Of a stretch of 64,000 bases of DNA, positions 1,959 through 61,850 are shown piece after piece. The first letter of the stretch is position 1, and each line of letters begins with the position of its first letter. Origin of the DNA: Moorena sp. SIOASIH (lineage in GTDB: Bacteria > Cyanobacteriota > Cyanobacteriia > Cyanobacteriales > Coleofasciculaceae); NCBI RefSeq assembly GCF_010671925.1, contig NZ_JAAHIH010000001.1:549053-613052 (forward strand), written 5' to 3'. Position numbers and translations under genes: made by a program. The notes under the pieces were generated by a model. It saw only the letters and a list, made by a program, of their open reading frames with translations. It was not told the origin of the DNA and searched no databases.

Positions 1959-3194
1959 ATGGCAACCATTAACCATAACTACCTCAAACTCAAAGCTGGC
2001 TACCTATTTCCCGAAATTGCGCGACGGGTCAATACTTTCGCAGAAGCCAATCCCGATGCTAAGCTAATCAAGCTGGGGATTGGTGATGTTACCGAACCAC
2101 TACCAGCCGCCTGCCGCACCGCCATAATCAAAGCCGTTGAAGAAATGGGCGATCGCGCCACCTTCAAAGGTTATGGTCCAGAGCAAGGCTACCCTTGGTT
2201 AAGGGAAAAAATTGCTAGCCACGATTTCCAAAGCCGGGGGTGTGACATTGAGGCTGGGGAAATTTTCATCTCCGATGGCTCCAAGTGCGACACTGGCAAC
2301 ATTCTCGACATCTTCGGCAACGATAACAAGATTGCCGTTACTGACCCAGTTTATCCCGTCTATGTAGACACCAACGTCATGGCTGGTCATACCGGGGATG
2401 CTAATGATGCTGGTAAGTATGAGGGTTTGGTTTATCTACCGATTACCGCCGAAAACAACTTCACCGCTGAGATTCCCTCCGAGAAGGTTGATTTAATTTA
2501 CCTGTGCTTCCCCAATAACCCTACCGGAGCAACCGCTACCAAAGACTACCTCAAAACCTGGGTAGACTATGCCAAAGCTAATGGCTCGGTCATTTTCTTT
2601 GATGCAGCCTACGAAGCCTTTATCACTGACCCAGACCTACCCCACTCCATCTACGAGATTGACGGAGCAAGGGATTGTGCCATTGAATTCCGCTCTTTTT
2701 CCAAAAATGCGGGCTTTACCGGCACCCGCTGTGCATTAACAGTAGTACCCAAAACCCTAACAGCCAAAGCATCGGATGGTTCAGATGTAGAACTGTGGCC
2801 ACTTTGGAACCGCCGCCATTGTACTAAGTTTAATGGGGTTTCCTATATTGTACAACGAGGCGCTGAAGCCGTTTATTCTGAAGAAGGCCAAGAGCAAGTT
2901 AAAGCACTAGTTGACTTCTATCTGGAAAATGCCAAGATTATTTGCGATCAACTAACAGCCGCTGGATTAACAGTATATGGTGGCGTAAATGCCCCTTACG
3001 TTTGGGTCAAAACACCTAATGGTCTATCCAGTTGGGATTTCTTTGATAAATTACTCAACACTGCCAATGTAGTCGGAACCCCTGGTTCTGGATTTGGTGC
3101 TGCAGGAGAAGGCTATTTCCGCATTTCCGCATTTAATAGTCGGGAAAATGTAGACGAAGCGATGCAGCGGATTACCGATAAATTCAAAGTGTAG
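1959..3194 (+). CDS. dapL: LL-diaminopimelate aminotransferase
   Basis: 411 aa. The N-terminus ([24 protein letters not shown]…[12 protein letters not shown]) and overall PLP class-I aminotransferase features are typical of cyanobacterial DapL. Confidence 0.85.
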
Positions 3195-3207: not shown

Positions 3208-3419
3208 GTAAGCATTCAGCTATCAGCTATCAGCTTTCAGCTATCAGCTTTCAGCTATCAGCTTTCAGCTTTCAGCTATCAGCTTTCAGCTTTCAGTCAT
3301 CAGTTTATGCGCTACGCGCACGCTACCCGAACAGCTTTTGAATAAAATAAGCTGACCGCTGACTACTGACTACTGACTACTTACGGCTGACCGCTGACCG
3401 CTGACCGCTGACTGCTTAA
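3208..3419. mobile_element. MITE-like palindromic element. It starts with GTAAGCATTCAGC, has (CAGCTAT/CAGCTTT)n at the 5' end and (GACTACT)/(GCTGACC)n at the 3' end, and its internal core is shared with the other copies.
   Basis: The 13-bp terminus is identical to the TIR of copies at 12578, 29837 and 61578. It contains the internal motifs TGCGCTACGCGCACGCTAC and TTTTGAATAAAATAAGCTGAC. The 3' terminus is degenerate (GCTGACTGCTTAA). Confidence 0.6.
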
Positions 3420-27289: not shown

Positions 27290-27766
27290 TCATCCCACGC
27301 TCACGCTACGCTTTGAGACGTGGGATGAATTTTGTGCAGGGTCTTTGTTGCTCATCTCAGGAGTGTCTTGGTTTTCAATGTACTTTTTAAGAGTAGAAAT
27401 AGTAACGCCACCACAACTAGCAATAAAGTAAGAACTATTCCACAATACAGGTTTTTTGTAGTAGATTCTGGCTAGTTGTTCACCAAATTCTACTCTTATT
27501 TTTCGGCTTGAGACACTCTTCAATGAGTTAACCAGTTTACTCAGGTGAATGTCAGGGTGATACTGGAACAGCAGGTGAACATGGTCTTTTTCCCCATCAA
27601 GGCTAACAAGCGATCATTCTTGTTGTTCAAGTAAGTTTTCAAAAATTTCATGTAAACGGCTAATCATCTCACCAGTAAAGACTTTGCGACGATACTTGGT
27701 CGTCAAGACGAGATGAGCTTTAAGGTCAGAGACAGACCGACCCTTGGATAAAAAGTCATTCTTCAT
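27290..27766 (-). pseudogene. tnpA: IS200-family Y1 transposase TnpA with an in-frame TGA stop
   Basis: Minus-strand translation reads MKNDFLSKGRSVSDLKAHLVLTTKYRRKVF…EQQE-[TGA]-SLVSLDGEKDHVHLLFQYHPDIHLSKLVNSLKSVSSRKIR…SYFIASCGGVTISTLKKYIENQ. The HVHLL and Y motifs are present and the stop is in-frame. Confidence 0.75.
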
Positions 27767-27818
27767 AAAAATCCTGCTGTTGTCTGCTATAATCAGTGTA
27801 GCTTAAAAGTTAACACCA

Positions 27819-29211
27819 ATGAAATACACGTATCAATATCGACTATATCCAGAGACTCAACAAACACTCACACTGAACGAGTGGCTGCGAGTTGGTCGAT
27901 ATTGGTATAACCGGATGTTGGGTGAGCGTTTTGATTGGTGGGAGAAAAATAGATGTCCGGTCAATGCCTGTCCATTAATCTGTTACCTTCCGGAGCTTAA
28001 AGATCAGCCCAATTTATACAGCCAGAAAAAGCAACTTCCAGTTATCAAGAAAGACTTGGTTAAGATTGGATGGTCTGGAGAGTTGATAGACTTTACTGAG
28101 GTTTATTCAACTGTTTTGCAAGATGTCTGTACAAGAGTAAAAAACGCTTTTAACAGGTTTATAGCAGGTGACAAAAATGGTAAACGCAGTGGCAAGCCTC
28201 GATTTAAGAATGTTGCCAGATATCGGACGTTAAACTTTCCAAATGCTTATAATTCTTGGTTAAAGTTCTGTACTGTTAACGGAAAATGGTTGTTTGTTCA
28301 AGTTCCTAAAATTGGTTTGATTAAGCTGAGAATACACAGACCGTTACCTGATAGTGCAAACTTAAAACAGCTATCAATTACAAGGAAAGCTGACGGATGG
28401 TACTGCAACCTGAGCCTAGAGGATAAGTCCGTGCCGGAGTTCAACCCTGATGACATTATTCCTACTTGGGAAAACTCAATTGGAATGGATGCTGTTCTAG
28501 ATAGAGGCTTTTATCTAGCAATATCCGATGGCAAGAAACTCCCCTCGCTTAAACCACTTCGTCGGAATCAAGACAAGTTAACCAAAGTTTCTCAACGGAA
28601 AAATAAGCGTAAAAAAGGAAGTAAAGCCAGACGTAAACTAGCAAAACGGGAAGCCCGTATTCATCAACAGATAGCTAGGAGTCGTGAAGATTTCCAGTAC
28701 AAAACTGCTCATCAACTGGTGAATACAGGTAAGAAAGTCTTCTTTCACGAGAAGCTGAACCTCAAGGGTTTAACTCGTCGCAATACTCCTAAACGAGGGC
28801 GAGATGGTACGTTCTTATCCAATGGTCAATCATCAAAATCAGGACTTAACAAGTCTTGGCTAGATGCAGCCTTTGGTCAGTTCTTTGAAGTGCTGGGTCA
28901 GGTAGCCGCAAAAGAAGGGCGCCAGTGTAGTCGAAGTCAAGCCAAATTACACATCTCAACTCCTCTCTTATCGAGATGAATTTGTGTTCACCGACCGAGA
29001 TATGCGAGAGTATTTCGATGAGGAACTAAAGCTGATTGTCGATAGAGATGTCAACGCATCAATCAACATAAAGCGAGTCGGGCTGGATGTGTTCCCGACT
29101 ATAAAACGCCGTAGAGGGAAGCCTGTAGTTGTTGAATCTACTACTAATAGTACCTCGCAGGAAGCTCTGACCGCTCTTTATGAGCATCAGAAGCCCACAC
29201 TGAAAGCGTAG
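27819..29211 (+). pseudogene. tnpB: TnpB (IS605 OrfB) disrupted by a frameshift near 28925. The RuvC-III segment continues in another frame and no zinc-finger cysteines are seen.
   Basis: ORF1 ends …VAAKEGRQCSRSQ… . The alternative frame reads …VVEVKPNYTSQ…FTDRDMREYF… and joins the 28984 ORF, which carries DRDVNASINIKRVG. Confidence 0.7.
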
Positions 29212-29392
29212 CGTCAGTGTGTGGTACATCACCGAAAGTTACCGATAATCTTAGAGACTTTGGCTCAGGTGTGGATCAGGTTTGATATCAAGTTCGTTTA
29301 ATCATTTGATTTACAGGTCATACCATAGATGGCAAACGCAGTTCTCAATACCCAATTGAGAACTGCTATTTATAGATATAAACTTTGGGAAA

Positions 29393-29737
29393 TCAAGCTA
29401 AGGAATCAGAGGAGATAGACCTTGAGGTAAACGTTTGGGGCATCGGGAAATTATCCCAGTGCAAGATATTATAGATTCCTGTATGAATCCAGTTTTCTAA
29501 ATACAGCTTCTGCTCTGAGGATAACTGCTGTAATTCTTGGCTTTTTGATGATGGTTCAATCTTGTCTATGGCTTCGTAATGATTCGGAATTCGGTTCAGG
29601 ACATAAGCAATTAAATCCTGGCGTATGTTAGACTGGGAAAACACTTCTTGATAAGGAAACTCCGGATAAGTTGCTAAGACGTTTTCAATTTCTTGAATCA
29701 CTATCGGTGTAGTTACGTGAACAAGGGTTTTAACCAT
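29393..29737 (-). CDS. ComFB-family protein (late-competence ComFB-like; cyclic-dinucleotide receptor family in cyanobacteria)
   Basis: 114 aa. The N-terminal pattern MVKTLVHVTTPIVIQEIENVL…DLIAYVLNRIPNHY matches the ComFB signature (…DI.A.ALN.LP..Y). Confidence 0.55.
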   Translation of the reverse strand: MVKTLVHVTTPIVIQEIENVLATYPEFPYQEVFSQSNIRQDLIAYVLNRIPNHYEAIDKIEPSSKSQELQQLSSEQKLYLENWIHTGIYNILHWDNFPMPQTFTSRSISSDSLA

Positions 29738-29836
29738 CGTTTACACTCCTTTTGCCAACCGGTTTATTATTGTAAACCGGTTTATTAATTAATATTATAT
29801 AGCGTGTTTTAAGCCCTGTTTTAAGTCAAGGGAAGT

Positions 29837-30177
29837 GTAAGCATTCAGCTATCAGCGTGTCCCGTATCAGCTATCAGCTAATGCGCTACGCGCACGCTAC
29901 TTGAGGTGCTATCAACCATTAGCCATTGGCCTGTGGCTACCGTACTTGAGGTGCTTATGGGCTATGGGCACGCTGTCTTGATGCAGTCGCTCATGGGGGA
30001 AACCACGGCAGTTGCTCATGGGGGGAACCCCCAAGACCGCACTGCCTCCCCAAGACCGTAATGGTGCGTTTTCCGTAGGCGAATTAAATTCGCCACGGGT
30101 CGCACCTCTGCATCGCTACTTGAGGTGCTTTTGAATAAAATAAGCTGACGGCTGACCGCTGATGGCTGAATGCTTAC
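29837..30177. mobile_element. MITE-like element, 341 bp, with perfect 13-bp TIRs and an 8-bp target-site duplication AGGGAAGT. It is inserted into the 3' end of a response-regulator gene.
   Basis: GTAAGCATTCAGC at 29837-29849 and GCTGAATGCTTAC at 30165-30177. AGGGAAGT occurs at 29829-29836 and 30178-30185. The interior carries the dispersed CATGAGCGACTGC / GCGGTCTTGGGG motifs. Confidence 0.8.
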
Positions 30178-30550
30178 AGGGAAGTATTCTTAACTGCTGA
30201 TTAATTGCTGCTAATAGTTCCCGACTCTCTACAGGTTTGGTTAGATAATCGTTGGCTCCCAGTTGCTTAGCTCGAGCATAGCCATCCTCCTTTGACTGAC
30301 TGCTTAGAAATATAAACGGTGTTTTCGCTGTAGTTATCCTATCCCGTAATATCTGGAGAAGCTCATACCCATCAATTGATGGTATATTAATTTCACAAAT
30401 AATTAAATCAGGTCGGACAACTTTAGCTAAAGTTAAACCGAGCCAACCGTCTTCTGCAGTAAGGACATTAAAGCCTTCTAATTCCAGTAAATCTGAGAAA
30501 TTTGAGCGCAACAGTTTATCATTTTCAATTAATAAAATTGTTTTGTTCAT
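30116..30550 (-). CDS. CheY-like single-domain response regulator. Its last 20 codons are read from the inserted MITE.
   Basis: MNKTILLIENDKLLR… with phospho-acceptor Asp context (DLIICEINIPSIDG) and the conserved KPV. The ORF track's upstream extension (MGINLDHEF…) is unlikely to be translated. Confidence 0.75.
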   Translation of the reverse strand: MNKTILLIENDKLLRSNFSDLLELEGFNVLTAEDGWLGLTLAKVVRPDLIICEINIPSIDGYELLQILRDRITTAKTPFIFLSSQSKEDGYARAKQLGANDYLTKPVESRELLAAINQQLRILPCKHSAISGQPSAYFIQKHLK

Positions 30551-30581: not shown

Positions 30582-31205
30582 TTAATCCCCAACTTGCAGA
30601 ATCTGTTCTAGCAAGAGGCGATCGCTAGTTGAGCTACCGAACCATAATTTATCTTTTGCCAGAGTACTGACAGATAACCTACCATTTGGTTCAACGCTAA
30701 AATCTTGATCCAACACTAACCCTTGCTCCTGAAGCTTATTGATTGCGACAGTCATCGCTACTGCCACTAAGTCAAGTTCGGGCATCAAATAATCGGGATG
30801 ACCCAATAGCCAGTGACAAGCATCAAGGTTAGTCTCTGGTAGTCGATAAACTGCTGCGAGTAAGACTTGCTCAATATAAGTGGGACTGGGTAAAACAGTC
30901 AGAAAGTCTTTAAGAGATTTGATAAATGTTGAGTCTTGACTCTGAAAGACATCCACAGCTAATGCGATGTATGACTCATAGTCCTGGGCGTCGGTGGTAC
31001 CCATATCTCGTTCCTTGGTCAAGGGCAAACTCTTGATACCCAGGACAACTGGTGTGAACGTTTGTCTCCTCTGGTGCTCTGGGTGGTGAGGATAAGCTAA
31101 ATCGATCGTGGGACTGATCGTGGGACTCAGGGATAATTGATCCAAAGGAGTGGCGCTGGAACAATTACTGGAACTGCTACTCTTGTTTGAAAAAATGATA
31201 CCCAT
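30582..31205 (-). CDS. Hypothetical protein (Ser-rich N-terminus), co-oriented with the response regulators
   Basis: 207-aa ORF with no recognisable motif. It overlaps the downstream response-regulator ORF extension by 11 nt. Confidence 0.35.
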   Translation of the reverse strand: MGIIFSNKSSSSSNCSSATPLDQLSLSPTISPTIDLAYPHHPEHQRRQTFTPVVLGIKSLPLTKERDMGTTDAQDYESYIALAVDVFQSQDSTFIKSLKDFLTVLPSPTYIEQVLLAAVYRLPETNLDACHWLLGHPDYLMPELDLVAVAMTVAINKLQEQGLVLDQDFSVEPNGRLSVSTLAKDKLWFGSSTSDRLLLEQILQVGD

Positions 31206-31566: not shown

Positions 31567-31947
31567 TCAATCGAGCCAATTAAGAATCCCTTGGATTTCC
31601 TCGACCAATTCCATAGGTTTAAACGGCTTGGTAATAACTCCAGTTACCCCCAAATCTAGAAACTGCTTTTGCTCGCTGCTCCTAGCTTTAGCTGTTAGCA
31701 AAATTGTTGGGATGTCCGCCGTTACTGCATTAGCTTGTAACTGTCGAAAGGTAGCCGGTCCATCCAGCTCGGGCATCATTACATCTAGCAGAATAGCATC
31801 AGGCTGATCTGCCTCAGCCTTAGCTAATCCCTCCTTACCAGAAGCAGCTGTCAACACTTCCCACCCTGCTGCTGCTTCTAGAGAAAATTGGATGATTTCT
31901 CGAACCCCATCATCATCATCAATCACTAAAATGCGCTTAGTTGTCAT
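31567..31947 (-). CDS. CheY-like single-domain response regulator. Its start overlaps the stop of the upstream histidine kinase by 11 nt.
   Basis: MTTKRILVIDDDDGVREII… with DAILLDVMMPELDG and TAKA…KP. Confidence 0.8.
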   Translation of the reverse strand: MTTKRILVIDDDDGVREIIQFSLEAAAGWEVLTAASGKEGLAKAEADQPDAILLDVMMPELDGPATFRQLQANAVTADIPTILLTAKARSSEQKQFLDLGVTGVITKPFKPMELVEEIQGILNWLD

Positions 31948-34816
31948 GGTTCTCACCTTCTGCTGCTGCTGTTTCTTTCGGTAAGGTAAAATAAAAACTG
32001 CTGCCTTCACCAACAGTACTCTCAACCCAGATTTTGCCTCCGTGCTGCTCCACTATATTACGGCAAATCGCTAACCCTAAACCCGTCCCTCCCTTTTTAC
32101 GGGCATCGGAAGCATCAACCTGTTGAAAACGCCCGAATATACTTTCAAGTTTGTCAGCCGGAATTCCCCTACCTTGGTCTTTAACGGTAAATAAGATCAT
32201 GGCACTGTTTGGGTCAGGGGGTGAGGTGGTTTCTGGTTCCTCTGGCTGTTGCAGTTCCACTGTTAACCATAGGCTAGAACCTCTGTCTGAAAATTTAATC
32301 CCATTGCTGAGTAAATTGGTTATGACTTGAATAATGCGATCGCTATCAGCCTCGAATTCAATCTCAGATTCAATAGCTTGGGGCGAGACTTCCAATTTAA
32401 TCCCAGCTCGATTAGCCATCACCTGCACCTGATCAACAGCTTTAACCATCAACTCAGCTGCATTCACTGGCTGCTTAGACAAACGGATCTTACCAGATTC
32501 CAGACGTTCCAGCTCCAAAATATCGTTAACCAGTCGCACTAAACGCTCAGCACTGTCAGCGGCAATGCCAATTACACGCTGTCCTCGTTCAGACTGAGGT
32601 TGAATTAGACCAGTTGATAACAGGTTCAAGGCACCATGAATTGAGGTTAGGGGGGTACGGAGTTCGTGGCTGACCACGGAGGTGAATTCATCTTTCATCC
32701 GTTCAATAGCGTAGCGCTCGGTAATATCTTCCCCAATACTCATGGTGCCAATTGCCTCTCCCTGGACATTTTGGAGTAGAGTATTATTCCAAGCAATGAT
32801 TTTTTCTTGCTTTGACTTGGTGAGAATCGAGTGCTGATAGTGGGGTTGAAAGTCTGGATCTAGGATGTCCTGGAAGTATTGCTGTACTGACTTTTGCTGG
32901 GAATTGGGCAGGAAGTTTTCAAACCAGTCCTTGCCTAAAACTTCTGCTTCTGTGTACTTAGTCAATTCTAGGAAGAAGGGATTGACATACTCCACTTTAC
33001 CCTGTCGGTCTAGTCCCACCACCACCAGTCGCACATGTTCGAGAAGGCTGCGCCACCGTCGCTCTGATTCCTGTAAGCTAGCAATTAACTGGGTACGTTC
33101 TTGTTCAAATCGTTTACGTGAAGTAATATCTCGCTGCAACACTAAGATATAGCTAATGTTTCCTTGAGTATCATGAACCACTGAACAAGAGTAGTCTGTG
33201 GTAAGAATTGTCCCATTTTTGCAGACAAACTCAATTTCTTGACGATAGGTTCCCTGCTCCAGTAAAACTGGAAACTGTTGCTGGCAAATGTTTTGGTATG
33301 TGGGGGTAAAGAACTCTTCTAAGCGATTACCGATCAATTCTGATTCAGCATAACCTGACTGGTGGATGACAGCCGGGTTCACTTGCTCAATCATGCCCTG
33401 AGTATCTAATATATGGATAAAATCTGGGGCAGATTCAAACAACGAACGGAATCGTTGTTCGCTTTCGAGTAAAGCAGCTGTGCGCTGTTGAACCCTAATT
33501 TCTAATTCTCGATTGAGTTGTTGTAATTCTCGATTGAGTTGTTGCAGTTGAGCTTCTTGCTGTTTACGCTCCGTGATATCCGTAGTGATGCCGTGAAGAT
33601 GTACAGAGGTGCCATTATCACGCCTAACCACACGAGCGCGATCGTTCAGCCAGCGAATTTCTCCATTACTGAGCTGAATTCTATATTCTAAATCCCACGA
33701 TTCACGACGATTTTCTTGAACAGCTCGCCATGCTTTCTCAACATGCTCAAAATCTTCTGGGACAATAAACTGTCGCCATAGGTTGTCTTGATCGCTGAAT
33801 AGCTCGAAAGTTGGGCGACCGTAAACTTGCTCGAAGGCTAAATTAACATAGCGCAGTATCCCAGAAGGCAGTGATACTGACCACACCACGTCTTGAAGAG
33901 AACTCATAATTGCTCGGAGCCGCTCTTCGTTGGACTTAAGTGCCTTTTCATTTTCTTGAAATGCTTCTTCTGTCTGCTTGCGTACGCTAATATCCGTAAT
34001 TGAGCCAACCACCCGCACTGCATCACCTGCTTCATTCCAAAGTGCTTGTCCCTGGTCAAGAATCCATTTGTAGCTGCCGTCGTTGCACTGTAAGCGATAC
34101 TCTTGAACGTAATAGGGGGTTTTCTGAGCCAAGTGATCCTTCATGGCTTTTATCACCTGGTCTACATCATCGCGATGAATGTGTGTCCGCCATTGATGGT
34201 TATAGTTTCCGATGTCGTAGTTTTCATCATACCCCAGCATTTCCTTACATCGGCTGGAGAAAAAGGTTTCATTGGTTTTGGGGTTCCAGTCCCAAATTCC
34301 CTGATTAGCTCCCTGTAGTGCCAATTGCCAGCGTTGCTCACGTTTTCGTAAGGATTGCTCTGCCAAAATACGCTCTTCAATTTGAGATTTTAGCTCCTGG
34401 TTGAGCTGCTCAAGCCTAGCCAGACTGGGAAAAGCGAGGACTCGAGGTAGAACAGAGAATAAATTTATGGCAGTGTAGACAGAAACTATAGCTGTAATTG
34501 CTTTAATAGAGCCTGATAGCCAGTAAGCTGGATACCAAAGCGTCCATAGTTCCATCAGGTGAGTGGTGCCAGAGGCAATAATCAACGCCCCAAACAAAAT
34601 CAAGAGTCCCTTGAAAGGCAGATCCTGCCGCTGCCTAATCAAGTACACTAGCAGTATGGGAATCACATAGTAGGCTAGGGTAATTAGGGAATCACTGATC
34701 AGGTGCAGCCAGATCAAGTTAGGCTGCTGGAGGTAGCAGTTGCCTTGGAGAATAAACGTTTCGGCAAATAGGAGATAGTCAAAGAAATTGATCATAATTA
34801 GGTTGACAATTGACAT
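31937..34816 (-). CDS. Hybrid-type sensor histidine kinase: N-terminal ethylene-receptor (ETR1)-like three-helix membrane domain, multiple PAS/PAC domains, HisKA and HATPase_c
   Basis: The N-terminus …ISDSLITLAYYVIPILLVYLIRQ…FGALIIASGTTHLMELWTL…AITAIVSVYTAINLFSVLP aligns with the ETR1 ethylene-binding domain. The H-box is EFTSVVSHELRTPLTSI, followed by a G-box region. Confidence 0.75.
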   Translation of the reverse strand: MSIVNLIMINFFDYLLFAETFILQGNCYLQQPNLIWLHLISDSLITLAYYVIPILLVYLIRQRQDLPFKGLLILFGALIIASGTTHLMELWTLWYPAYWLSGSIKAITAIVSVYTAINLFSVLPRVLAFPSLARLEQLNQELKSQIEERILAEQSLRKREQRWQLALQGANQGIWDWNPKTNETFFSSRCKEMLGYDENYDIGNYNHQWRTHIHRDDVDQVIKAMKDHLAQKTPYYVQEYRLQCNDGSYKWILDQGQALWNEAGDAVRVVGSITDISVRKQTEEAFQENEKALKSNEERLRAIMSSLQDVVWSVSLPSGILRYVNLAFEQVYGRPTFELFSDQDNLWRQFIVPEDFEHVEKAWRAVQENRRESWDLEYRIQLSNGEIRWLNDRARVVRRDNGTSVHLHGITTDITERKQQEAQLQQLNRELQQLNRELEIRVQQRTAALLESEQRFRSLFESAPDFIHILDTQGMIEQVNPAVIHQSGYAESELIGNRLEEFFTPTYQNICQQQFPVLLEQGTYRQEIEFVCKNGTILTTDYSCSVVHDTQGNISYILVLQRDITSRKRFEQERTQLIASLQESERRWRSLLEHVRLVVVGLDRQGKVEYVNPFFLELTKYTEAEVLGKDWFENFLPNSQQKSVQQYFQDILDPDFQPHYQHSILTKSKQEKIIAWNNTLLQNVQGEAIGTMSIGEDITERYAIERMKDEFTSVVSHELRTPLTSIHGALNLLSTGLIQPQSERGQRVIGIAADSAERLVRLVNDILELERLESGKIRLSKQPVNAAELMVKAVDQVQVMANRAGIKLEVSPQAIESEIEFEADSDRIIQVITNLLSNGIKFSDRGSSLWLTVELQQPEEPETTSPPDPNSAMILFTVKDQGRGIPADKLESIFGRFQQVDASDARKKGGTGLGLAICRNIVEQHGGKIWVESTVGEGSSFYFTLPKETAAAEGENHDN

Positions 34817-35497: not shown

Positions 35498-37480
35498 TTA
35501 TTTATCTGACAACATTTGATTCTTCTGTGCTATCGTTCTTATCCTTAGTTTACTGCGCTCAATGCGATTCAACACCCGAGCTAATAGCTCCGGTGCCCTG
35601 ATTGGTTTTTGTACGTAATCATCTGCCCCTGCCATAAACACTTGCTGCACAGTTTCAGCATCTTGAACAGCTGATAGAAACAGCACGGGTAACTCACCCC
35701 AGCGAGGGTCATTGCGTACCACCTGGCACAGGTCAATACCGCTAAACTCCGGCATTTCCACATCCAAAATCAGTAAATCTGGACTACACTGCTCTATGGT
35801 TTCCCAGAACTGTTGTGGATCGTTTAGCAAAGTCAATTCAAATCCCCAAGGTTCTAGCACAGTGCGTAGCTGATCCAGGATTTGAGGGTCATCGTCAACA
35901 ATCAATAGCTTTGCCTGTGGTGGACCGGATTGTTGCAACGCTTTAGCGATCGCAGCCATGACCTTTTGAGGTGCTACAGGCTTCTGAAGAAAACCCCTTC
36001 CTCCCAAACGAGCCACTCTGACTCGTTCAGCAAAACTCTCTTGAGCCGTAAATACTACCACAGGTACAGGGGGCTCAGTTGTTTTCAGTTCTTCTAACAG
36101 CTCGAAACCATTTCCCGCTGATTCAGGAAAACACAAGTCTAGTAGTACCACATCGGGGCGGTTACCAGCAATTGCTTTTCTCCCTTGAGATATATCACCC
36201 GCCACCTCAACCTGAATTTTCCAGGCTGCTAGCTCTGATGCCAACCCTTGCGCTAGTGTTAAATCATCATCCACAATCAGTAGTCGTGGGGAGTGGGGAA
36301 TCGGGAATCGGGAGTAGGAAGTGGGTAGTGGTTGACTTTGAGTAGGTTTTGGAAGGTTATCCTCGGTCTCTAGTTCTTGTCGTAGTTCTACCACTAGTTG
36401 AGACAGATGTGCTATAGTCTCTTTGCTAGCTTTTTTCCCAGATTGCAATATCTCCTCAATTTCACGGGATTTGAGAGAGGCTTGATCAAATCCAAAGCTA
36501 CCGAGGGAACCGGCTAGGGTGTGTGCCTCCCGTAAAGCCTCCTGTCGCAACTTTCCGGTAAGATTACCATCTCGCCAATCCGTCACCGCCTGCTCCAATA
36601 CATTGACCCGCTTGATATACTTTGACTTCTGCTGCTGCCAAATGGCACTTAATCCTGATTGCTTTGGTTCTTCGGATTGAGCATTAGGGACTGGGGAAAG
36701 GGAACTATCACTCTTGACCTTTGAGTGTTTCAGGTTAGATGGGGTCTTTTTCCCGGCTTTTTTGCCTTTGTTTTTCTCAGTCTTTGTTTGACCTGAACCT
36801 TTCTCAGGCGGTTGTCTGAGCCGATAACCCAAGCCATAGACGGTTTCAATTAAATCATTTTTGGCTCCAGCTTCCTTGAGTTTCCGCCGTAAACTTTTGA
36901 TATGAGCTCTAACGGCATTTTCTGTAGGGGGTTCTTCAAAAGACCAGAGATTATCTAGCAGGAAACTTTGGCTAAAGATGCGGTGGGGATTCCGTAAAAA
37001 CAGCTCTACTAGACCATACTCCTTAGGTGTCAGATGTAATAGTTCCTGATCGTAGCTGACCTGGCAGTTACTGGGGTCAAGGTGCAGTAATCCCCACTCA
37101 AGCACCGGGAGTAGGGGGGTGCTGCTGCGGCGCAGCACTGCTCGAATTCTGGCTAATAATTCAGGTATGTCTAAGGGCTTGACTAAATAATCATCCGCTC
37201 CTGCGTCTAAAGCTTCGACTTTGTTAGTGCTGGTGTCTTGGGCAGTGAGCAGTATAATCGGAGTGCGATCGCGTGCGTTTCGCAGCTGCTTGCACAAATC
37301 AATCCCCGTGAGCCTGGGGAGCATCCAATCTAGCAAAATCAAGTCATACTTAAATATCTCTGCTAGTGCTATCCCCTCATCCCCATCTGTAGCTAGATCA
37401 ACCTGATAATGTTGACTAGCTAGCGCTGCCGTTACCACTTTGGCAATACCTTCATCGTCTTCTACTAGCAGGATTCTCAC
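35498..37480 (-). CDS. Multi-domain response regulator: REC, OmpR-type winged helix, HPt-like domain, REC, REC
   Basis: REC1 is MRILLVEDDEGI…DLILLDWMLP. The wHTH is …LTPKEYGLVELFLRNP…VYGLGYRL. HPt-like is EALREAHTLAGSLGSFGF. REC2 is LLIVDDDLTLAQ. REC3 is KLLIVDDDPQIL…LILDVEMP. Confidence 0.75.
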   Translation of the reverse strand: MRILLVEDDEGIAKVVTAALASQHYQVDLATDGDEGIALAEIFKYDLILLDWMLPRLTGIDLCKQLRNARDRTPIILLTAQDTSTNKVEALDAGADDYLVKPLDIPELLARIRAVLRRSSTPLLPVLEWGLLHLDPSNCQVSYDQELLHLTPKEYGLVELFLRNPHRIFSQSFLLDNLWSFEEPPTENAVRAHIKSLRRKLKEAGAKNDLIETVYGLGYRLRQPPEKGSGQTKTEKNKGKKAGKKTPSNLKHSKVKSDSSLSPVPNAQSEEPKQSGLSAIWQQQKSKYIKRVNVLEQAVTDWRDGNLTGKLRQEALREAHTLAGSLGSFGFDQASLKSREIEEILQSGKKASKETIAHLSQLVVELRQELETEDNLPKPTQSQPLPTSYSRFPIPHSPRLLIVDDDLTLAQGLASELAAWKIQVEVAGDISQGRKAIAGNRPDVVLLDLCFPESAGNGFELLEELKTTEPPVPVVVFTAQESFAERVRVARLGGRGFLQKPVAPQKVMAAIAKALQQSGPPQAKLLIVDDDPQILDQLRTVLEPWGFELTLLNDPQQFWETIEQCSPDLLILDVEMPEFSGIDLCQVVRNDPRWGELPVLFLSAVQDAETVQQVFMAGADDYVQKPIRAPELLARVLNRIERSKLRIRTIAQKNQMLSDK

Positions 37481-40775: not shown

Positions 40776-41864
40776 TCAACCTTCAACCAATTTGTCATTG
40801 GCTATTTTCTCTGGTAGCTGCTCAATAATGCCACCTCCGAGCACCAGCTCCCCGTCATACAGAACAGCAGCCTGTCCTGGCGTGATGCTGAATTGTGGTT
40901 CATCGAACACTAATCTGATCCGATTTCCTTCTAGAGGAATCACATTTACAGGTACAGCAGGTGAGCGATAGCGAACTTGCACAGAAGCTCGAATGGGAAC
41001 CGTAGGTTCCTGAATCGATACCCAATTGACCCGATGAACCGTACATTCAGGTTGGGTGGCTTGGTGGCGTTCCCCCACAATTACCCGATTCCTGGCTGCA
41101 TCGAGGGCAATCACATACAAGGGATTGGGAGCAGCTATACCTAGCCCTTTCCGTTGTCCAATGGTGTAGTGGTGAATTCCTTGATGTTGCCCTACCACAT
41201 TTCCATCCAAGTCCACGATGTCACCTGTGGTTTGGGAAATATACTTGTCCAGGAACTTCTGCATCGAACCGTGGGATTCGATTAAACACAAGTCCTGACT
41301 TTCTGGTTTATCAGCAGTCTTGAGATTATACTCAGCAGCAAGGCGTCGCGTTTCCGTTTTCTTCAGTTCTCCCAAAGGAAATAGGGAAGCCGCCAGCAGG
41401 TCTTGAGTCAAGTCATACAGGAAGTATGACTGGTCTTTTGTCAAGTCTAGTGCTCGCCGCAATTGATAGCGATCGCATTCAGCATCATAAGTAATCCGGG
41501 CATAGTGACCTGTGGCTATTTTGTCAATCCCCAATGTCTCACGGGCATAGGTCAGCATCGGACCAAACTTTACTGCCTTGTTGCACTGAGAACAGGGGAG
41601 TGGAGTAATCCCAGATTGGTAACCCGACACTAAGTAATCCACAATGTTTTCCTGAAAAACATCGCGACTGTCCACAATATGGTGGGGAATCCCTAATTGT
41701 TCACAGATAAACGCTGCATCGACCATTCCCTCAGAGCAGCATTGACCCTTCCCTTTCATTAACCAAAGGGTCAATCCTACAACTTCATATCCTTTGTGAT
41801 GGAGGGTGGCGGCAGCTACGGAACTGTCTACTCCGCCAGACAAGCCAACGACAACTTTATTCAT
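40776..41864 (-). CDS. mnmA: tRNA-specific 2-thiouridylase MnmA
   Basis: 362 aa with the PP-loop [10 protein letters not shown] and catalytic Cys context; overall typical of MnmA. Confidence 0.9.
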
Positions 41865-42048: not shown

Positions 42049-42461
42049 CATTAATGCCTTACTCGGATTTCTCCGGTTAAGTTCGCTTCGCCAAAGTTAA
42101 AGGTCGGTACTTTCCACAGCACACTGTCTTACCCCTCGTAAAACTGTTTAATGCTGCGGTTCTAGAGCTGGGAACTAGCGACGTATTCCCAGGTAGGAAC
42201 TTCAACACTTACCGATAACGTAGTCCTCAAGGGACTTAGGCTGGTCAGCTATCTAAAGTTCGTTGGGCATCATGCCCAACGAACTTTAGAGCGGGGTGCT
42301 GACCAACTCAACAGATTTCTCCCTGAGGGAGGTATTGCATTGTATAGTATTATTGTAGTGCTCCTGACCCTTAAGTCCTTCTACCTTAAGTCGAGTGGGC
42401 AAAGTGGGATTTCACTCCTATCCTGGAATCATAGAGTATTACGATAACTCTGGGAGTATCA

Positions 42462-59998: not shown

Positions 59999-61216
59999 TT
60001 GTTAGCTAATCAGCCATTAATCTCATTTATTGATATTGCATTTTTGCTAATAGCATTTGCCCTTATCGTTCCAATTACAGTTCTTTTGATTGAATGTAGT
60101 GCAGCAATTTTGCCTAATGCTTCTAAGCCATGGTCGGATGCTAGCAAACCCCGACCAACGATGGCTGTTTTAGTTCCCGCTCACAATGAAGCCTCTGATA
60201 TCAGTGCCACCCTCGAAACATTAATACCTCAGCTTACGGAGCAAGACCGACTAATAGTAATTGCTGATAATTGCACTGATGACACCGCAGCAGTGGCTCG
60301 GAAATCTGGCGTTATCGTAATTGAACGACAGGATCATGAGCGCAGAGGTAAGGGATATGCCTTAGATTTCGGTATGGGGTTTATTGAGCCTAATCCACCG
60401 GATGTCGTGGTGGTCGTTGATGCAGACTGTATCGTTGCTGAAGGAACGATTTCACGGATTTCCCGCCTTGCGTACGCTACACAACGACCGGTTCAGTCAA
60501 CTTACTTAATGACACAACCAGACAACCCGGTACTAAAGGATTTGATCTCTACCCTGGCGGTTAAATTCAAAAATACAGTCCGTCCGACTGGGTTACATCG
60601 ACTGGGCTTGCCTTGTTTGTTAACAGGTTCAGGAATGGCTTTCCCCTGGTCAGTGATTCGCAAAATCTCTTTGGCTGGCAGTAAAACAGTTGATGATATG
60701 CAGTTGGCTTTGGATTTAGCGATCACTGGGCATTCCCCAATATATTGCCAAGAAGCAGGAGTCACAGGTCGTCTGATGAAAGAGGCTTCAGCAAAGAGTC
60801 AAAGGTCACGCTGGGAGCATGGTCATATCGAGACTCTGCTAAACCAAGTTCCTGAGTTACTCAAAGAGTCTATTCGTCAAAGACGTTTCGACCTATTAGC
60901 GTACGCATTAGACTTATGTGTGCCACCATTGTCCCTATTGGTTCTAATGTGGGTAGCTGCTACAGGGGGAGCTTTACTCGGGGTAGCCTTGGGAGGATCA
61001 TGGATAAGTACCATTGTCTTACTCATAGAAGGGGTACTCCTGTTAATTGCGATTGTTGAAGGTTGGGCTAAGTTTTGCCGAACAGACTTTCCGATCCTGA
61101 TGCTCTTAGCTGTCCCGATTTACATTCTGTGGAAAATTCCCGTCTATCTGGCTTTTCTGGTGGAACCTCAGACCAAGTGGATTCGCACAGAAAGGGATGC
61201 AGTCGATACCCCATAA
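59999..61216 (+). CDS. Membrane-integrated processive GT2 (synthase-type; cellulose/chitin/hyaluronan-synthase-like) with a QxxRW motif
   Basis: N-terminal TM helices, then a GT-A domain (LVPAHNEA…DNCTDDT…VVVDADC) with a C-terminal polytopic region. QRSRW at ~res 267-271 matches the processive Q(Q/R)XRW signature. Confidence 0.7.
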   Translation: MLANQPLISFIDIAFLLIAFALIVPITVLLIECSAAILPNASKPWSDASKPRPTMAVLVPAHNEASDISATLETLIPQLTEQDRLIVIADNCTDDTAAVARKSGVIVIERQDHERRGKGYALDFGMGFIEPNPPDVVVVVDADCIVAEGTISRISRLAYATQRPVQSTYLMTQPDNPVLKDLISTLAVKFKNTVRPTGLHRLGLPCLLTGSGMAFPWSVIRKISLAGSKTVDDMQLALDLAITGHSPIYCQEAGVTGRLMKEASAKSQRSRWEHGHIETLLNQVPELLKESIRQRRFDLLAYALDLCVPPLSLLVLMWVAATGGALLGVALGGSWISTIVLLIEGVLLLIAIVEGWAKFCRTDFPILMLLAVPIYILWKIPVYLAFLVEPQTKWIRTERDAVDTP

Positions 61217-61239: not shown

Positions 61240-61590
61240 GGGTTTGCATTCAGCTAATGCGCTACAGATGGTGCTACTTGAGGTGCTTTTGAATAAAAGA
61301 GGTAAGCATTCGTTATAAAAGAGATAAGCATTCAGCTCTCAGCTCTCAGCTCTCAGCTCTCAGCTCTCAGCTCTCAGCTTTTGAATAAGCGATGCAGCGC
61401 GGTCTTGGGGAGGCAGTGCGGTCTTGGGGGTTCCCCCCACTCGCTATTGCCGTGGTTTCCCCCATGAGCGACTGCATCAAGACAACAAGTAAGCATTGGT
61501 TTAATCTATGTTACGTCAGCACCTCTAGTAGCGTGAGCCTTGGCCATTCGCGAATGGCTGACGGCTGACGGCTGACGGCTGAATGCTTAC
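61240..61590. mobile_element. Composite MITE-like repeat region with nested partial copies. It ends with the canonical TIR GCTGAATGCTTAC at 61578-61590.
   Basis: Contains GTAAGCATTCG/ATAAGCATTCAGC internal termini, (CAGCTCT)8, GCGGTCTTGGGG x2, CCCCCATGAGCGACTGCATCAAGACAA and (GGCTGAC)3. Confidence 0.55.
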
Positions 61591-61850
61591 AGCATTCGTT
61601 TAATCTGAGTTATGTCACAGCACTTGTGGCCTATGCCACAAAGCTGATTGACTTTTACCCAGACTTTCAATTCTCTAAAATCTCTTAATATTAAATTCTC
61701 CCGTTTGCGCATCGGCGCAAACGGGAGAATGCTTACCAAAAACCTTATAGAGTAAGCTTATTATATAAGGGTTTCCCTAGTTTTGAAGACTATCTTTATT
61801 TACCTTTTGCTTTTCTAGCATGGTTAACTAATTTCAAGGTGCGAACTACA

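Follow-up and report, generated by a model that had tools for sequence, protein, structure and literature searches.

Repeat-Element Fusions to Bacterial Reading Frames

Fusions of repeat elements to bacterial reading frames, including extension of the 3′ end, are described for ERIC, BOX/RUP/SPRITE, BRE, and REP2 elements and for the MITEs of Anabaena in the sections of a review that treat them (PMC3184786, sections 4 and 15), the 3′-end cases being credited in section 15 to Delihas 2007, Croucher 2011, and Hot 2011. ERIC, BOX/RUP/SPRITE, and BRE elements land at or near a stop codon, where the open frame extends or replaces the C-terminus and filled sites can be set against empty ones; the Moorena MITE described here behaves likewise, although it belongs to a different element family and a different host. 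Rickettsia palindromic elements (RPE; Ogata et al. 2000) are presented as the most extreme fusions in the part of PMC10969869 concerned with them (section 13). As portrayed there, an RPE resembles the Moorena MITE in being a palindromic mobile element that adds translated residues while the fold stays compatible. An RPE is an internal in-frame insertion whose conserved peptide is retained across species, whereas the Moorena tail is terminal, non-conserved, predicted to be disordered, and found in a single lineage.

Several MITE families have been named in cyanobacteria, namely Nezha (Anabaena/Nostoc), MITEa-e of Anabaena PCC 7120, the MaeMITEs, and the MITEs of Anabaena sp. 90, and both ORF fusions and gene disruptions have been reported for them (PMC3184786; PMC10969869; PMC3542288). 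They share with the Moorena element a size of 100–450 bp, terminal inverted repeats (TIRs), target-site duplications (TSDs), very stable hairpins, and pairs of empty and filled sites; the heptamer arms and the 8-bp TSD may set the Moorena element apart. At its ends the element resembles IS66, the hallmarks of which are inverted repeats of 20–30 bp starting with GTAAGCG and 8-bp direct repeats (PMC11946415). The ends of the Moorena MITE, 21–22 nt long, begin with GTAAGCA and thus share six of those seven bases as well as the 8-bp duplication, but the element, unlike IS66, carries no tnpA, tnpB, or tnpC gene.

The present case, a MITE at the 3′ end of a receiver gene in Moorena, was found in a 64-kb stretch of DNA (the window) and adds a very clean new example to a known kind of event, in a MITE family matched to no named one. 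The preliminary description had highlighted a mobile element supplying a new terminus to a signalling protein. At the sequence level this stands; it is not remarkable, since such termini are a known general side effect and at least one other family member (L098, below) has clearly produced one likewise. The locus offers a tidy and fully reconstructable stop-codon replacement: the target and its duplication can still be seen, as can the displaced stop and five empty sites. No question of long standing is opened by the insertion, and there is no indication of any consequence for function.

Structure of the Inserted Element

The body of the element spans 341 bp (29837–30177), as supported by its inverted repeat, by other copies of the family, by its absence from five orthologous loci, and by its fold. 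Its termini, GTAAGCATTCAGC...GCTGAATGCTTAC, are followed by sub-terminal heptamer arms (TATCAGC/GCTGACG type) and a composite core. The left TIR (29837–29857, plus strand) is 95% complementary to the right one (30157–30177, minus strand), and an inverted-repeat search returned arms of 22 nt at 29836–29857 and 30157–30178 with the same complementarity, the TIR length being 21–22 nt. Inward of the TIR come a variable number of heptamer units (TATCAGC, CATCAGC, or CGTCAGC reading inward; GCTGACG or GCTGATA on the opposite strand) and then a variable core. Matches to the TIR motif number 11 in the window against 0.01 expected, far above chance.

Flanking the element are two copies of AGGGAAGT, a perfect 8-bp match. 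The distal copy (29829–29836) reads AGGGAAGT on the plus strand and ACTTCCCT on the gene strand, while the gene-proximal copy (30178–30185) contributes to the codons of ...I-L-P and supplies the opening base of Cys125. A duplication of 6 bp had been put forward earlier; that shorter flanking repeat (GGGAAG) was given up for 8 bp on the evidence of other family copies, in which 8 bp is the rule.

The RNA of the element folds at -153.4 kcal/mol, compared with -112 ± 4.6 for shuffled sequences (z = -9.1). No transposase-sized gene is present, the internal ORFs being repeat-derived and only 40–51 aa long. By the operational definition, which rests on TIRs, a TSD, small size, many copies, empty sites, and a stable fold, the 341-bp element is a MITE, as had been claimed. 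An Rfam search with it matched no family.

Nested in the core at 29975–30065 lies a separate repeat module built of CTCATGGGGG.../CCCCAAGACCG... units. It recurs in inverted form in the copy at 61323–61591 (61400–61429; 61385–61485) and at ~10560–10750 (~10580–10750), and its units (CTCATGGGGG.../CCCCAAGACCGCACTGCC...) are found both inside MITE cores and outside them. In a search of a plasmid collection with the element, the module was 83–91% similar to stretches of 43–76 nt on plasmids of Nostocales and other cyanobacteria (Nostoc, Tolypothrix, Brasilonema, and Stanieria), and the MITE ends had no match in that collection. As its core carries a separately recurring module, the element is composite.

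Empty Sites and the Ancestral 3′ End

An orthologue search with one genome taken per species returned five loci, all from Moorena and mostly drafts or MAGs (M. producens 3L, M. bouillonii PNG, and the MAGs SIO3H5, SIO3I8, and SS36440), with 90–93% amino acid identity. The 349 bp made up of the element and one repeat copy are absent from all five, each of which holds the target once (alignment A1). Comparison with orthologues had been set beforehand as the refuting test, and the tail proved to be lacking at these five MITE-free loci as well as in five database orthologues (P0001–P0005), which all end in ...QQLR[IM][LV]PLT; P0002–P0005 are 126 aa long, and P0001 is annotated at 140 aa solely through an upstream TTG start.

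The ancestral ending can be read from four of the five loci as ...CAG CAG TTA AG(A/G) ATA CTT CC(C/A) TTG ACT TAA, that is, ...QQLRILPLT and a stop (...QQLGILPLT in SS36440). At the fifth, in M. producens 3L (L001:3373-3393), a point change of TAA to TCA has lengthened the protein by four residues to ...ILPLTSNRA. This stop loss shows that the receiver C-terminus can also drift by point mutation. Removal of the element and one repeat copy from the window sequence in silico gives CAG CAG TTA AGA ATA CTT CCC TTG ACT TAA, hence QQLRILPLT and a stop, the restoration that the preliminary description had proposed and that the empty sites now display in nature.

The target ACTTCCCT covers codons 122–125 of a stand-alone receiver gene of 126 codons, with its end 8 bases short of the TAA. 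What followed it persists at 29821–29828 (minus strand) as ..TG ACT TAA, the rest of Leu125, Thr126, and the stop, in agreement with the orthologues; the old Leu-Thr-stop now lies 349 bp farther downstream, beyond the distal repeat copy. The empty sites and this displaced remnant together bear out the reconstruction of a change from 126 to 144 aa, and with it the claim that the stop codon and C-terminus were replaced by the MITE. With five empty sites and the displaced stop still in view, the ancestral state is unusually clear.

In the gene-position index, the exact chimeric protein is not on record in either its 144-aa or its 158-aa version, and the 27-mer across the junction of receiver and MITE had no match in metagenome contigs; within these two collections the insertion is seen in a single genome. 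It looks recent, given the perfect duplication and the 95% complementarity of the TIRs.

The Chimeric C-Terminus and its Reading Frame

The present-day receiver gene (30116–30550, minus strand) is defined by its ORF translation, by Pfam, and by AlphaFold2, and consists of 144 codons (MNKTILLIEND...KHLK) followed by TAG at 30116–30118, the ATG at 30550 being preceded, at a distance of a few bases, by a GGAG Shine-Dalgarno-like motif. Its ancestral part, codons 1–124 up to Pro124 (30179–30550, minus strand), is colinear with the five Moorena orthologues at ~90–93% amino acid identity. The remainder (30116–30178, minus strand), read directly and absent from all orthologues, is the element-derived tail Cys125–Lys144, CKHSAISGQPSAYFIQKHLK, with its TAG, so that the minus-strand translation ends ...AAINQQLRILPCKHSAISGQPSAYFIQKHLK, just as the preliminary description had it. 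The tail is encoded by x-GT AAG CAT TCA GCC ATC AGC GGT CAG CCG TCA GCT TAT TTT ATT CAA AAG CAC CTC AAG TAG, in which codon 125 takes its first base from the end of the TSD and everything after that base comes from the right TIR (translated as KHSAISG), the heptamer arm, and the beginning of the core. Direct reading thus bears out the earlier statements that the frame stays open across the TIR and a single heptamer arm and that the predicted protein gains a net 18 aa (126 to 144), its last two residues (Leu-Thr) having been swapped for 20; the closing TAG lies within the element. From the sequence, the tryptic peptides of the chimeric terminus would be HSAISGQPSAYFIQK or ILPCK.

Direct reading of the repeat units shows why such tails arise. 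Whichever end it is entered from, the terminus GTAAGCATTCAGC presents a stop (TAA) to just one of the three inward frames, and the inward heptamer units have no stop in any of them, so that the other two frames are carried through the arm into the core. As its heptamer arms are free of stops when read inbound, the MITE family tends to add tails and not to truncate at once.

In the AlphaFold2 model, residues 125–144 have pLDDT <50 and join the fold three residues after alpha5; the tail is most likely disordered. The length of the C-terminus varies naturally among homologues (119–144 aa), none of which carries the MITE tail, and this variation, together with the extension in M. producens 3L, speaks for tolerance of change at this end of the protein. 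Nothing in the sequence suggests that the tail is functional.

An Aspartate-Less Receiver

Pfam assigns Response_reg (REC) to residues 5–117 (E = 8e-25). AlphaFold2, run with 36 homologues, models a (beta-alpha)5 receiver of five strands and five helices (pTM 0.80), with pLDDT >90 over most of residues 1–124 and alpha5 at 109–121. Both boundaries fall short of the junction, so the receiver domain is untouched by the insertion, as had been stated.

CheY, the reference receiver, has its acceptor D57 at the end of beta3, an acidic pair D12/D13, and the signature residues T87 and K109. The earlier label of a "CheY-like response regulator" holds for the REC fold and fails at the phospho-acceptor, as Glu53 (30392–30394, minus strand) stands, in alignments, where CtrA, CpxR, and other solved receivers have their acceptor Asp. 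Glu occupies this position in all Moorena orthologues, and Asp in most of the more distant homologues. At the CheY D13 position stands Asn10 (30521–30523, minus strand; T10 in one orthologue), the D/E-D pair being replaced by E9-N10. Fold and substitutions, with Glu53 for the acceptor Asp and Asn10 for the metal-binding Asp, are those of aspartate-less receivers, while the Ser/Thr and Lys signature residues of phospho-accepting receivers are kept as Ser83 and Lys105 at the CheY T87 and K109 positions, K105 being invariant in alignment A2. By these residues the host protein is an aspartate-less (pseudo-)receiver, a trait at the level of the genus, and not a canonical CheY. The practical use of the finding is in annotation, where the entry for the 144-aa product should carry a note that it is a MITE chimera and that the protein is an aspartate-less receiver.

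The receiver gene is intact, with no frameshifts or internal stops. Pairwise dN/dS between it and the orthologues lies at 0.25–0.41 and among the orthologues at 0.11–0.30, values that have little power over 124 codons. The gene shows no sign of decay and appears to be still constrained.

Gene Neighbourhood and the RNA Level

The receiver is the middle member of a three-gene cluster that is syntenic in all five Moorena loci. Upstream on the same strand lies a 207-aa gene with no Pfam family (30582–31205, minus strand), which ends 32 nt before the receiver ATG, and downstream a ComFB-family gene (29393–29737, minus strand; Pfam ComFB 2.9e-07). ComFB proteins are cyclic-dinucleotide receptors. 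The receiver sits in a signalling cluster with another REC protein (31567–32025), an ETR1_N-PAS-HisKA-HATPase kinase (31937–34816), and a REC-OmpR-Hpt-REC-REC protein (35498–37480). Co-transcription of the receiver and ComFB is assumed here from spacing and synteny. The distance from receiver stop to ComFB start, ~80 nt in the orthologues, has been raised by the insertion from 83 to 378 nt (+295). A scan of the gene strand inside the element for consensus promoters and terminators returned nothing, a consensus that says little for cyanobacteria.

Just upstream of the ComFB start, at 29757–29782, the palindromic motif AACCGGTT occurs in two direct copies (as TAAACCGGTT) spaced 16 bp start to start and partly conserved in the five Moorena loci; the pair might serve as an operator or as a weak terminator. 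On the far side of ComFB, ~160 bp beyond the gene, lies a strain-specific element of IS200/IS605 type (~27600–29233), with a TnpA-like fragment (~27600–27770, minus strand) and a TnpB (OrfB_IS605) the frame of which is broken between 28979 and 28984. One orthologous locus (L002) is without this element, the junction falling after ...GGTAACTTTCG.

The MITE Family and its Possible Origin

The window holds four further copies or remnants of the MITE, at 3208–3415, 12577–12766, 61324–61590 (61323–61591), and 10458–10500. The intact copy at 12577–12766 has 8-bp flanks (GATTACTT), while the one at 61324 is without a clean duplication and looks rearranged; the number of heptamer units varies widely, with ~11 at 3221–3297. 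Three of the copies lie 14–110 bp past the stops of plus-strand ORFs (1959–3194, 11175–12554, and 59999–61216), so that insertion near gene 3′ ends is usual for the family, and the receiver case is, on these positions, an insertion that falls a few bases short of the usual post-stop position.

A scan of public contigs found the terminus on at least 120 metagenome contigs. Elements with paired ends numbered 56 (108–440 bp), and their flanks agreed at eight of eight positions in 24 and at seven of eight in 11, or 35 of the 56 together. A frame of at least 100 codons enters the element in five of these 35 members with good duplications, the receiver included. L098 (5698–5908) is a clear parallel at a 3′ end, its protein passing from ...RQ to ...VSIQR before the stop; L164 (899–1085) ends a truncated leucine-rich-repeat protein with the identical CKHSAIS... 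peptide; in L112 the gene enters in the frame that holds the TAA and is stopped immediately; and L160, the weakest of the five, is possibly a spurious frame in GC-rich DNA. The terminus GTAAGCATTCAGC returned only unrelated primers from the searchable literature, and the family defined by it and the 8-bp TSD should be marked in annotation as an abundant family of cyanobacterial metagenomes.

For an autonomous partner, the cognate IS of a type I MITE, every pair of TIRs separated by no more than 4 kb in the metagenome contigs was examined. The only pair more than 600 bp apart (L125, 3.2 kb) was rejected as an autonomous copy, being two separate elements around a host gene, and Pfam assignments for 20 large ORFs beside unpaired TIRs yielded host genes only and no transposase. 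Neither the window, nor the plasmid collection, nor the surroundings of the 20 unpaired TIRs yielded an autonomous element with such ends, and these sequences contained no gene for an IS66 TnpC (DDE) transposase with matching ends. Derivation from IS66, to which the end sequence and TSD length point, is no more than a lead.

Proposed Course of Events and Alternatives

The sequence shows that a 341-bp non-autonomous TIR transposon entered ACTTCCCT in this Moorena lineage and duplicated its 8-bp target. The frame now continues through the TIR (GT AAG CAT TCA GCC ATC AGC) and the heptamer arm, until the first in-frame stop of the core closes it and leaves a tail of 20 residues. In the account that we favour, mobilisation would have been in trans, most likely by an IS66-like transposase that recognises GTAAGC... 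ends and makes 8-bp duplications. The tail, lying past alpha5 and predicted to be disordered, would be an unselected by-product, probably tolerated in view of the natural variability of the C-terminus among homologues; its neutrality is our default assumption. A physiological effect, if any, would be likelier to have its source in the hairpin (-153 kcal/mol) and in the 295 nt added before ComFB than in the tail, by way of mRNA processing, stability, or polarity, should the receiver and ComFB be co-transcribed, and the RNA-level effect of the hairpin may thus matter more than the tail. Taken as a whole, from MITE insertion and by-product tail to trans mobilisation and the precedence of RNA over tail, we regard this account as highly probable.

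The insertion might instead have begun the loss of the cluster, the receiver being impaired through unstable mRNA or protein, ComFB being silenced by polarity, or both, which would make the gene an incipient pseudogene. Cyanobacterial genes are commonly put out of action by MITE insertions (PMC3542288; PMC3184786), and here a hairpin of -153 kcal/mol sits in the 3′ region between receiver and ComFB, a second strain-specific mobile element (the IS200/IS605 type) lies ~160 bp beyond ComFB, and the window lineage has dN/dS values (0.25–0.41) that rank high within the range. Yet the receiver, ComFB, and the upstream ORFs are all full length without frameshifts or stops, the REC fold is predicted to be fully retained, and just two ancestral residues were lost, from an end that varies among relatives. 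Decay of this kind appears unlikely.

Exaptation would have the 20-residue tail gain a function, in stability, localisation, or partner binding at the alpha4-beta5-alpha5 face, and so bring about an adaptive change in signalling. Receivers use the alpha4-beta5-alpha5 surface for output, and the tail is modelled to join three residues after alpha5, at that surface; the frame, moreover, stays open for 20 codons with no immediate stop, in a gene that is intact and has a dN/dS <1. The open frame, however, has a mechanical explanation in the stop-free heptamer arms, and the identical tail sequence stands on the unrelated leucine-rich-repeat protein of L164, where it truncates the gene. The tail is also predicted to be disordered, and the insertion is known from one genome only, the protein being off the record and the junction absent from metagenome contigs; with TIRs that are 95% complementary and a perfect TSD, it would be young and have had little time for selection. 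A gained function of the tail is accordingly, in our judgement, very improbable. Much the same must be said of adaptive rewiring in a broader sense, in which the tail would alter the output of the aspartate-less receiver or the hairpin would uncouple or retune the expression of receiver and ComFB; we would give it only a slim chance. If true, it would mean a distinct signalling phenotype in this strain and a natural case of regulatory or protein novelty made by a MITE in a two-component cluster.

That the long form is ancestral, with ...PLT and its stop produced by deletion, or that the insertion is an assembly artefact, is a formal possibility alone, left by orthologues that are mostly draft genomes or MAGs, and a nearly negligible one, given that perfect 8-bp repeats stand exactly at the TIR ends, the target occurs once in five independent genomes, distant homologues (~119–144 aa) never carry the MITE tail, family members of like structure are dispersed elsewhere, and the displaced ...TG ACT TAA remnant persists downstream; the empty sites, the TSD, and this remnant effectively exclude a long ancestor.

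Other Features of the Window

The window also contains a neighbouring pair of features of a different nature. The ORF at 40776–41864 encodes a tRNA methyltransferase (MnmA-like) and not an HNH/IscB protein, and beside it, at 42076–42303 on the minus strand, lies a full-length HEARO RNA (Rfam RF02033, 143.6 bits, E = 6e-30).
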